This document shows positions 23,066 to 24,420 of a DNA stretch of 64,000 nucleotides, piece after piece. The stretch spans positions 232,182 to 296,181 of the forward strand of contig CAWJLN010000009.1 in NCBI GenBank assembly GCA_963843735.1, in the 5' to 3' direction. Position numbers and translations under genes: made by a program. Positions within the stretch are counted from its first letter, which is position 1. Each line of letters starts with the position of its first letter. The DNA comes from an uncultured Gammaproteobacteria bacterium. Its GTDB lineage: Bacteria; Pseudomonadota; Gammaproteobacteria; JAKDMP01. The notes beneath the pieces are model-generated. The model was not told where the DNA came from. It ran no database searches and worked only from the letters and a program-made list of their open reading frames with translations.

Positions 23066-23224
23066 GCTGACCTCCGTGTTGGGGAACCAATGGGCGTAGC
23101 GACAACGATACGCCGTGGCGGCTCTGGCCTCGGGCCAATCCCCGGTGAGTACCCACCGGAGGTCAGCGCTTCGGCCCGTGGAAGTCATACTGTCTAGCCG
23201 CTTTGTGAGCGAATCAGCAAATCA

Positions 23225-23731
23225 ATGGGCCTATTTGACGCATTCATCGCGAATTTTCTAGGAACTCTGCTTGGCGGCATAGTCCTCGCGCTCTTGTTCT
23301 TTTGGGCGCGGGAGAAGTTGTTTCCGTTGCCGAATATTACGGGTCAATGGTATTTCGAAATGCGAACTACTACTACTTCGTACAGACCATACGAGAATAT
23401 GATTCTTCGCTACGTCGCCATGCTATGGCGAGAAGATAGCCGAATTGAAGGCACGGTTGAAAAGGTCTATGAAGATTCGTCTACTGGACAGCGGAGTTAC
23501 ATTGGCAAGAATCGCACGCGGGGCCGGGTTCAGGGATACGTACAGAAGAATTACTTCGGCAGGGATCGAGTCTTCCTGCATATAGTCGAGGAAGGGCACG
23601 GGCGTGAATCTACGAACTTCTGCGACCTGTACGTGCAGCCCGACGGCGAGATGGCGGGCGAATTCAGCTCAATGGTTGCTGATCAAAGCGGGGACGTGAC
23701 TTGGAGACGAGAGTCCTTCCGAGACAATTGA
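23225..23731 (+). CDS. cassette 6 ORF-a: single-TM, beta-strand-rich protein of unknown function
   Basis: 168 aa; TM helix FLGTLLGGIVLALLFFW, then ITGQWYFEMRTTTTSYRPYENMILRYVAMLWRE...; stop TGA 23729-23731 overlaps next ATG by 1 nt. Confidence 0.6.
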   Translation: MGLFDAFIANFLGTLLGGIVLALLFFWAREKLFPLPNITGQWYFEMRTTTTSYRPYENMILRYVAMLWREDSRIEGTVEKVYEDSSTGQRSYIGKNRTRGRVQGYVQKNYFGRDRVFLHIVEEGHGRESTNFCDLYVQPDGEMAGEFSSMVADQSGDVTWRRESFRDN

Positions 23732-24405
23732 TGCTAATCCTCTCCGCGCCGTTCATTCTCGTTTCAAGAATGGCCGAGATATTCGATGTGTGGAATATAC
23801 GGGAGGATATCGGACGCTGTCTACGGATAGTTGACCTTGTTGGTGGTCTGGTTCCAAATAGCTTTGTGGGCGTACTTGTAGCGGCTGAAGATCACCGAAA
23901 TCACTTACATGTCGGGGTCGATCCGATTGCGATCATTCGTGCGGCTTACTCGCTTGTTTTGGGGCGCTCCTTGCAGGGTGCAAGCACGATTGAGCAACAG
24001 TTGGTTCGCGTTGTGACAAACCGTTACGAGCGGACACTGATCCGCAAAGTACATGAACAAGCGCTTGCGATCGCCATATCTCGGCGCCGACCCAAAGCGC
24101 TCATAGCGTCCGCATACCTTGCGGTCGCGTTCTATGGCTCCCGTTATGAAGGGCTGGATGGCCTGAGAAGAGCATGCGGACGTGAGCTCAATCTCGCGAG
24201 TCTTTTGTCCATCAGAGGTATGATCGCGAGATTGAAATATCCGGAGCCGATGCATCCGTCGGCTGCCTGGAAGGATAGACATCGAGCACGCACGGAATAT
24301 ATTGCCACTCGCCAGGGAGCGGCTAACAATGCGCTGCAGCCGACCGAACAAACTGCTCACGAGCTTTGCCTACGCAAAGCTCGCGCCAGTTTGCTCGGCG
24401 GCTGA
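23731..24405 (+). CDS. cassette 6 ORF-b: divergent stand-alone GT51 (peptidoglycan transglycosylase-like) protein
   Basis: ATG 23731 (alt. ATG 23770); EDHRNHLHVGVD, QGASTIEQQLV, RKVHEQALA, AFYGSRYEGLDGL, GMIARLKYPEP align by eye to GT51 motifs of PBP1b/MtgA; 3' end runs into attC6. Confidence 0.65.
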   Translation: MLILSAPFILVSRMAEIFDVWNIREDIGRCLRIVDLVGGLVPNSFVGVLVAAEDHRNHLHVGVDPIAIIRAAYSLVLGRSLQGASTIEQQLVRVVTNRYERTLIRKVHEQALAIAISRRRPKALIASAYLAVAFYGSRYEGLDGLRRACGRELNLASLLSIRGMIARLKYPEPMHPSAAWKDRHRARTEYIATRQGAANNALQPTEQTAHELCLRKARASLLGG

Positions 24406-24420
24406 GCTTGGTCGTTGGGG
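24321..24420 (+). other. attC site 6 (100 bp)
   Basis: GGCTAAC (24321-24327) ... GCAGCCGACCG / CTCGGCGGCTGAGC arms related to attC3/5, extra central hairpin GAGCTTTGC-ctac-GCAAAGCTC, R' GTTGGGG (24414-24420). Confidence 0.65.

Follow-up and report, generated by a model that had tools for sequence, protein, structure and literature searches.

What does a wall-polymerase homologue do on a mobile integron cassette, directly behind a gene for a membrane-tethered beta-barrel? GT51 glycosyltransferases are extracytoplasmic wall polymerases and antibiotic targets, and the question arises in a 64,000-nucleotide (nt) stretch of DNA (the window) from an uncultured Gammaproteobacteria bacterium (assembly GCA_963843735.1, contig CAWJLN010000009.1, positions 232,182 to 296,181), where two overlapping open reading frames (ORFs) share one cassette. 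ORF-a encodes a single-pass membrane protein with a C-terminal barrel and ORF-b a stand-alone, divergent GT51 domain. We find that the pair is a conserved, undescribed and widespread mobile unit built from known folds, and we tentatively favor a function for it as a self-contained, mobile two-subunit membrane conflict module, in which the GT51 protein would be the effector, with the barrel protein serving as anchor, regulator, or sensor. Coordinates below are in window numbering unless a locus identifier (L followed by digits) precedes them.

One cassette, a membrane-tethered barrel and a divergent GT51 domain

The first-pass annotation of this DNA had described a single cassette carrying two translationally coupled genes with no attC between them. 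Both genes were found where it had placed them, and they retrieve 266 (ORF-a) and 483 (ORF-b) homologues, with E-values down to 1e-80 and 1e-113, respectively, among non-identical matches; with homologues in the hundreds, these are real genes and not chance ORFs. A repeat search of 21550-24500, on which the attC calls in the window rest (those in related loci come from reading of the sequences), recovered the two arms of attC5 (21627-21659 and 21675-21697) again at attC6 (24319-24351, 85% identity, and 24395-24417, 83% identity) and no further copies, including between ORF-a and ORF-b. These data place both genes in one integron cassette, with an intact attC6 downstream and an attC5 upstream that is interrupted by an insertion sequence (IS).

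The AlphaFold2 (AF2) model of ORF-a consists of a helix (residues 2-31) followed by nine strands (pLDDT 94), in agreement with the single transmembrane (TM) helix and small beta-barrel proposed earlier. Foldseek matches the model to designed barrels, avidins, NHBA, and lipocalins, with TM-scores of at most 0.76 (target-normalised) and E-values no better than 1.6e-3, and the modelled barrel is calycin-like, with 8-9 strands. Like the calycin-type barrels (avidins, lipocalins, neisserial NHBA, and designed mFAP), it opens with G-x-W; the resemblance is at the level of the fold only, since sequence identity is 7-18%, ORF-a is membrane-tethered, and its conserved residues lie in polar loops instead of lining a hydrophobic cavity. 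The family is well conserved (mean column identity 68%), both in a TM-helix motif, T-x-x-G-G-x-x-L-A-x-L-F-F, in which G18, L21, and F26 are invariant and T14, G17, A22, L24, and F25 are conserved to at least 90%, and in three polar loops on the barrel (EKxYExSSTG, NRTRG, and ExGHGRES). Pfam, NCBIfam, PADLOC, PHROGs, and sequence and profile searches of the PDB gave no family assignment for ORF-a; no Pfam match at E ≤ 10 was obtained for ORF-a, seven homologues, or 40 alignment members, and precomputed Pfam annotation is absent from all 120 ORF-a relatives listed.

The first-pass annotation had also compared this architecture with that of CBASS Cap15. Cap15 and OptE are S-2TM-beta proteins (PF18153), in which a two-pass TM element is fused to a nucleotide-binding barrel, and they are membrane-disrupting (PMC12657218, whose supplement supplied the VnOptE sequence used here). 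ORF-a shares with them an N-terminal membrane segment directly before a small barrel, the junction P-x-(L/I)-x-G-x-W-x-x-E, and a mobile two-gene operon with an enzyme. An hhalign comparison of a 74-sequence ORF-a superfamily profile with an OptE-family profile gave a probability of 82.7% over 29 columns only, and these columns consist of the first hairpin and the P-x-L-x-G-x-W-x-x-E junction that follows the TM helix; with VnOptE alone in place of the family profile, an ORF-a profile reached 2.5%. PF18153 is annotated in all 120 VnOptE relatives listed vs. none of the 120 ORF-a relatives listed, ORF-a itself has no match to PF18153, PADLOC models, or a relevant NCBIfam model, and Cap15 structures are absent from its 50 best Foldseek matches. 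UniRef names one ORF-a homologue S-2TM-beta, a name that is not reproduced with current Pfam. ORF-a further differs from S-2TM-beta proteins in having one TM-grade segment instead of two and in its partner, which is a GT51 protein in 95 loci and not a CD-NTase/mCpol nucleotide second-messenger synthase; only two loci (L018 and L060, discussed below) add a protein with a GS...SDLD motif. Thus, the TM-plus-barrel part of the earlier comparison holds, whereas ORF-a fails as a member of S-2TM-beta by family models, number of TM segments, and partner; it may nevertheless be a distant relative and may work like the Cap15/OptE barrels.

The start of ORF-b differs from the earlier description. The stop and start codons reported to overlap by 1 nt (TGA 23729-23731 and ATG 23731-23733) are literally present; however, homologues begin ~10 codons before ATG 23731 (MAxxxxL..LSxPF), which corresponds to TTG 23701 in the window (METRVLPRQL..., METRVLPRQLMLILSAPF), and P0002, the closest relative at 83% identity across the aligned part, starts with METRALSRQLILILSAPF. 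Starting at TTG 23701, ORF-b overlaps ORF-a by 31 nt, compared with 22 or 4 nt between the called genes at other loci; the 31 nt of the window equal 22 nt plus three extra C-terminal codons of its ORF-a. Whichever start applies, the two genes are translationally coupled. At the other end, the ORF-b stop (24403-24405) and the last ~28 codons fall inside attC6, so the last ~28 residues are attC-encoded; this tail varies among homologues, and pLDDT falls to about 65-74 over the last ~30 residues.

Both Pfam and the fold identify ORF-b as a genuine GT51 domain, as the first-pass annotation had read it by eye, and it belongs to a distinct clade. PF00912 matches with E = 1.4e-23 (83.7 bits vs. a cut-off of 27; profile positions 22-171 of 178), PBP1A-family NCBIfam models match as well (TIGR02074, E = 1.3e-22), and the best solved relative is the glycosyltransferase (GT) domain of Aquifex penicillin-binding protein (PBP) 1a (2oqo, E = 8e-16), with both catalytic Glu aligned. 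The AF2 model (pLDDT 90) superposes on this fold: the 21 best Foldseek PDB matches are all GT51 (probability 1.0, TMt 0.57-0.70), among them the Aquifex PBP1a GT domain 3nb6 (E = 2e-6, TMt 0.69) and the Staphylococcus aureus monofunctional glycosyltransferase (MGT) 3vmt. Both catalytic Glu, whose retention had been noted earlier, are invariant in 40/40 homologues. Across 39-40 homologues at 45-56% identity, motif 1 (E-D...H.G.D), motif 2 (G-A-S-T.E-Q-Q...R), motif 3 (R-K..E-Q), motif 4 (Y-L), RLKYPxP, and a distal Arg are likewise invariant, and because of this invariance the motifs indicate that ORF-b is almost certainly an enzyme. Relative to the canonical motifs (EDxxFxxHxG, GGSTITQQxxKN, and YLN), the clade carries invariant substitutions of motif-1 Phe by Asn (EDHRN, not EDxxF) and of motif-2 Thr by Glu (STIEQQ, not STITQQ), replaces the motif-2 Lys with Arg and YLN with YLA/S, so that the Asn is lost, and contains an invariant unpaired Cys (C40). 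Thus, ORF-b has PF00912, the fold, both catalytic Glu, and recognisable motifs 1-5 in common with MtgA, the S. aureus MGT, and the GT51 module of class A PBPs; it differs from them in these motif changes, in having no convincing TM anchor and a predicted cytoplasm-facing orientation, in its obligate pairing or fusion with a TM-barrel protein or pairing with a nucleotidyltransferase (NTase)-like protein, and in its location on cassettes and islands and not in wall-synthesis loci.

Linkage, alternative partners, and mobility

The pairing seen in the window recurs elsewhere. An ORF-a profile scan with one genome per species recovered 42 loci from many phyla, and in 35 of them an ORF-b homologue lies immediately downstream; taxa with the pair include Pseudomonadota, Acidobacteriota, relatives of Geobacter and Desulfuromusa, Binatia, and Omnitrophota. 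The seven other loci comprise three decayed copies (L026, L029, and L038), one with unrelated neighbors (L033), and three (L014, L015, and L018) in which ORF-a is paired instead with a TM-less protein containing GT51 and transpeptidase domains. In L014:6669-9063, and in L015, this partner is a 556-amino-acid (aa) class-A-PBP-like protein (Transgly + Transpeptidase) with no TM helix or signal peptide, and its gene is followed by that of a 247-aa multi-pass membrane protein without a known family. Reciprocally, an ORF-b profile scan of metagenomes gave ORF-a directly upstream in 55 of 80 loci, with no room for ORF-a in nine of the 80. The distance matrices of ORF-a and ORF-b correlate (Mantel r = 0.64, p = 0.001, n = 70 pairs), and ORF-a is the more conserved partner (p-distance 0.48 vs. 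0.57). In Escherichia coli, a 35%-identical ORF-a relative occurs on an IncF plasmid and in 2 of the 5426 complete genomes, and there too it precedes a "transglycosylase domain-containing protein" (the E. coli pair is WP_029397132/WP_029397131); an exhaustive profile search gave 638 clusters at 50% identity.

The two proteins also occur as one. Among these clusters, the single-chain proteins P0330, P0369, P0376 (396 aa), P0379, P0381, and P0387 join a TM helix, barrel, and GT51 domain, and in a metagenomic protein of 383 aa (P0278), an ORF-a-type TM helix and barrel are fused, with no hydrophobic linker, to Amidase_3 (E = 7e-34). No third conserved neighbor gene accompanies the pair, as no Pfam family appears more than three times among 133 neighboring ORFs, and we found no description of such a gene pair in the literature searched.

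A second partner emerged from the metagenome loci. Sixteen of the 80 loci selected by ORF-b have room upstream but no ORF-a, and 15 of these carry directly downstream a protein of ~225 aa, protein C, which occupies the same position in six loci without upstream room. Its signature is an invariant G-S...S-D-L-D, the Pol-beta nucleotidyltransferase motif, and we term it NTase-like by this motif only; no Pfam or PDB relative of protein C was found. Denoting ORF-a, ORF-b, and protein C as A, B, and C, the architectures over 122 loci are A-B in 95, B-C in 21, A-B-C in one (L060), and B alone in five, which makes the GT51 protein the constant core and A and C near-exclusive partners. In the B-C loci (L100, L104, L112, L114, L116, L117, L126, and 14 other metagenome loci), a TM-less GT51 gene overlaps the C gene. 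The B-C pair of L112:2818-4174 begins 4 nt before the end of hsdR, and a sequence search of the PDB gave no relative of the protein whose gene precedes the GT51 gene in L114. L060:793-2670 carries ORF-a, ORF-b, and the NTase-like gene consecutively; in L018:646-3359, the order is the TM-less GT51+transpeptidase gene, the NTase-like gene, and the ORF-a homologue.

These architectures bear on the division of labor between the partners. The roles that we favor could be reversed, an alternative only slightly less probable in our estimation, in which ORF-a would kill as a Cap15/OptE-like membrane disrupter, oligomerising via its TM helix, and the GT51 protein would be a sensor, guard, or decoy that might be targeted by a phage wall-synthesis inhibitor or might report the state of lipid II or muropeptides; in B-C loci, the NTase-like protein would then be the alternative effector, by analogy with AbiEii/MenT-type toxins. 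The near exclusion of A and C (95 vs. 21, both in one) is what one sensor shared among interchangeable effectors would show, one ORF-a homologue bears the S-2TM-beta name in UniRef, the order in L018, with the NTase-like gene before the barrel gene, resembles optS-optE, the ORF-a TM helix is conserved far beyond the needs of an anchor, and the hhalign match to OptE (82.7%) falls at the TM-barrel junction; OptE and Cap15 are themselves membrane-disrupting effectors with a ligand-binding barrel (PMC12657218). On the other hand, a pure sensor would not need all catalytic and substrate-binding GT51 motifs to be invariant, ORF-a has one TM helix and not the two-helix module of S-2TM-beta proteins, no PF18153 or PADLOC Cap15 match was obtained and Cap15 lies outside the 50 best Foldseek matches, and the NTase assignment of protein C is by the GS...SDLD motif only.

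In at least 17 related loci, cassette boundaries are recognisable, with a GTTAG-type core 20-30 nt before ORF-a and an attC with a GCTAAC box inside the 3' end of ORF-b, indicating that the cassette travels as such. Outside integrons, the pair occurs in E. coli NB4833 (L044:543-4828) in an integrase-bounded island together with an ABC-three-component system, a gene of the MbcA/ParS/Xre antitoxin family, and copies of IS1 and IS3, with HipBA adjoining the island; ParDE and an HNH protein lie beside one non-integron copy. In Allochromatium vinosum (CP001896; L045:10001-11913), the pair and a DUF4160 gene interrupt a V-type ATPase operon, separating its A subunit gene from its B subunit gene. Type I restriction-modification (R-M) genes adjoin the module in L037, L048, L050, and L112, and a putAbiC cassette adjoins the pair in L039; this association with defense genes is suggestive but anecdotal. 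Defense systems are known to be carried on integron cassettes (bioRxiv 10.1101/2024.07.02.601719). As in the two-gene cassettes of integrons, most of them toxin-antitoxin (TA) cassettes, and in phage-defense cassettes, two overlapping genes here share one attC-bounded cassette and recur in arrays; in contrast to those, neither protein belongs to a known TA or defense family, and the pair is also found outside integrons. Phage genomes and viral contigs yielded no relatives, and for this reason a phage-borne lysis or superinfection role was considered unlikely.

The same contexts invite comparison with a plain TA addiction cassette without an anti-phage role, which would keep the array or island stable and in which ORF-b would deplete wall precursors and ORF-a would inhibit ORF-b. 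MliC/PliC barrels reportedly block lysozymes, an analogy for a barrel plugging a lysozyme-like cleft, and the conserved basic and acidic loops of the ORF-a barrel could plug the active-site cleft in this way. Two small overlapping genes with the upstream partner first, in integron arrays and near ParDE/HipBA-type modules, fit such a cassette, as does the stronger conservation of the upstream partner (p-distance 0.48 vs. 0.57). However, ORF-a is a membrane protein without DNA-binding (helix-turn-helix or ribbon-helix-helix) or labile-antitoxin features, covalent fusions of the ORF-a/ORF-b type are common, and a consensus scan recognised no promoter upstream of ORF-a in the window, unlike in typical integron TA cassettes. 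We consider plain addiction the least probable of the readings weighed here, although it is not cleanly separable from the conflict module that we favor.

Setting of the cassette in the integron array

The array is that of a chromosomal integron, with attI and attC-bounded cassettes after intI from about 19260 (Table 1). The G+C content is 49-55% over the cassettes at 19-25 kb and 53% in the two-gene cassette itself, compared with about 64% in the flanking chromosome. Detectors of attC based on regular expressions and on RNAfold were dropped, as they missed true sites or performed no better than on shuffled sequence.

Table 1. Coordinates of the integron, the insertion sequence, and the two-gene cassette in the window
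Feature	Position	Strand	Remarks
Integron integrase intI	18173..19192	-	Phage_integrase E=4.5e-39, Phage_int_SAM_4 E=1.4e-30; defines the cassette-holding array
attC5, attC of the preceding cassette	21627..21697	+	Read from sequence; R' end GTTG 21694-21697 interrupted by IS
IS110-family insertion sequence in attC5	21698..23194 (approximate ends)	-	DEDD_Tnp_IS110 E=4.7e-16, Transposase_20 E=6.1e-21
Transposase of the IS110-family element	21956-23188	-	
Two-gene cassette	23195..24420 (5' end approximate)	+	From IS/attC5 junction to R' box of attC6
ORF-a	23225..23731	+	168 aa; single-pass membrane protein, C-terminal beta-barrel
ORF-a TM helix, about residues 8-30	23246..23314	+	Best 19-mer dG -0.76, Kyte-Doolittle (KD) 2.24; AF2 helix 2-31
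ORF-a beta-barrel, about residues 38-165	23336..23719	+	AF2 strands 40-161; opens G40-x-W42
ORF-b	23701..24405	+	234 aa from TTG 23701 (homologue-supported); 224 aa from alternative ATG 23731
GT51 (Transgly) domain	23851..24297	+	PF00912; residues 41-189 of the 224-aa form
Catalytic Glu 1 codon	23887..23889	+	Motif 1 AAEDHRNH; E53 (224-aa form), E63 (234-aa form)
Catalytic Glu 2 codon	24055..24057	+	Motif 3 RKVHEQ; E109 (224-aa form), E119 (234-aa form)
attC6	24321..24420	+	R'' GGCTAAC 24321-24327; R' GTTGGGG 24414-24420

The IS110-family element has its insertion site precisely at the R' core (GTTG) of attC5 and carries terminal inverted 10-mers (TATGACTTCC at 21699-21708 and GGAAGTCATA at 23180-23189); by this position it resembles the attC-targeting IS1111-attC group. 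It separates the two-gene cassette and the further downstream cassettes from the integron promoter, and a consensus scan found no sigma-70-like promoter between the IS and ORF-a. The neighboring cassette at 20701-21549 encodes a DUF4145 protein (E = 3.6e-4, below the Pfam cut-off) and contains a second small ORF after a degenerate GTTAGGT core at ~21240, and may be another two-gene or fused cassette. Downstream of attC6 (24435-26508), a DUF302 cassette is followed by a MarR-family regulator (24966-25403) and, on the opposite strand, by a metallo-beta-lactamase-fold protein (25498-26508), where the G+C content is back at the host level.

Predicted topology and possible function

The orientation of the pair in the membrane was estimated from hydrophobicity and charge. 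The ORF-a TM segment is insertion-grade (family median summed Hessa dG -0.43), and its N-tail is acidic, with a mean of 0.23 Lys+Arg vs. 2.7 in the 15 residues after the helix, a bias seen in 39 of 40 sequences; by the positive-inside rule, these flanks predict a cytoplasmic barrel. Five of the GT51 fusions have a single TM-grade segment, the best other 19-mer being +5.3 to +8.3 kcal/mol, and with no second segment the GT51 domain is expected on the barrel's side of the membrane. In ORF-b, the N-terminal anchor called weak in the first-pass annotation is indeed marginal (best 19-mer summed Hessa dG about +4.2 kcal/mol; family median +3.9), and no TM or signal segment was detected in the GT51 proteins of B-C loci, the GT51+transpeptidase partners of L014 and L018, or protein C. 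The GT51 domain of ORF-b therefore probably faces the cytoplasm, as far as such sequence-derived predictions reach, an orientation contrary to that of every characterised member; this is the most surprising point of the analysis, and it is still a prediction.

A more conventional arrangement would be an extracytoplasmic accessory wall synthase, in which ORF-b is an anchored MGT and ORF-a its membrane activator or scaffold, and the cassette spreads because an extra polymerase helps under envelope stress, such as that from GT-targeting antibiotics or competitor attack. The GT51 fold and all catalytic motifs are kept, the N-helix of ORF-b aligns with the TM helix of the S. aureus MGT (3vmt, 231 columns in Foldseek) and has a KD value of 1.83, integron cassettes classically hold adaptive and resistance genes, and the Amidase_3 fusion partner normally works on mature wall. 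We nevertheless judge this arrangement improbable: in 39/40 sequences the positive-inside signal points to a cytoplasmic barrel, the fusions lack a second TM helix and so carry the GT51 domain on the barrel side, same-clade relatives and PBP-like partners have no TM or signal sequence, the active-site residues are invariantly non-canonical (the Asn, the Glu, and the absent Asn of YLN) beside an invariant unpaired C40, and dcw/mrd-type wall-synthesis neighborhoods were never seen in the loci examined. A role in moenomycin or beta-lactam resistance was ranked low because of the same predicted cytoplasmic topology.

In the conflict module that we favor, ORF-a would be inserted with its short acidic N-tail outside and its barrel in the cytoplasm, and ORF-b, a catalytically intact divergent GT51 protein, would be held at the inner membrane face by its marginal N-helix and by ORF-a. 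The barrel would serve as a regulatory or ligand-sensing subunit, as in the Cap15/OptE effectors; once released, the GT51 protein would act on lipid II from the wrong, cytoplasmic side, and the undecaprenyl-linked precursor pool would be consumed or trapped, so that wall synthesis stops. Such a module would provide abortive-infection-like defense or addiction, and would not be a housekeeping wall synthase. The enzyme is favored as the effector because the catalytic motifs are invariant in every architecture, because a second muropeptide-directed enzyme (Amidase_3) occurs as a fusion partner of the same barrel, and because ORF-a lacks the two-helix membrane-disrupting element.

Several points weigh against this proposal. 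The gene pair, its folds, the conserved catalytic residues, the obligate linkage and fusion, the mobility, and the contexts are directly supported; the topology, division of labor, substrate, and biological trigger are what we infer from them, and the evidence fits reversed roles, with the barrel as effector and the GT51 protein as sensor, equally well. The topology is deduced from the positive-inside rule and from simple hydrophobicity sums, the KD value of the ORF-b N-helix is above the classical threshold of 1.6, and a true ORF-b anchor with a periplasmic GT51 domain is possible in the split (unfused) form; to our knowledge, all GT51 enzymes act outside the cytoplasm. Type I R-M neighborhoods number ~4 among ~53 loci of at least 6 kb, where most neighbors are unrelated genes, and neither protein matches a PADLOC model. 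In the window itself, the cassette lies behind the IS, ORF-a has a weak Shine-Dalgarno sequence, and ORF-b starts with TTG, and the pair may not be expressed there.

Of the three functions suggested in the first-pass annotation, the genomic context favors a conflict or defense module or a toxin-type pair, and wall remodelling is now less favored; that annotation did not foresee the fusions, the NTase-like protein as an alternative partner, or the cytoplasmic orientation predicted here. With slightly more doubt than attaches to the conflict module itself, we suggest that the cytoplasmic-side GT51 clade could be the constant core of an undescribed mobile conflict or defense family, with TM-barrel + GT51, GT51 + NTase-like, and all three proteins as its architectures, and could offer a first glimpse of a lipid II-centered class, in which lipid II would be attacked by a suicide enzyme or else be the molecule under surveillance.

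If true, a conserved GT51 clade without an export signal would put this fold to a new use, with a cytoplasm-facing, sensor-like barrel as its tether or fusion partner and with integron cassettes, plasmids, and islands near restriction systems as its carriers. At about 1.2 kb and two genes, the system is compact, and its catalytic residues are clear targets for mutation, which makes these ideas directly testable. If the pair is a defense or addiction module, another class of integron cassettes of "unknown function" would become assignable, and lipid II would be added to the few molecules known to be attacked or monitored by systems of this kind.

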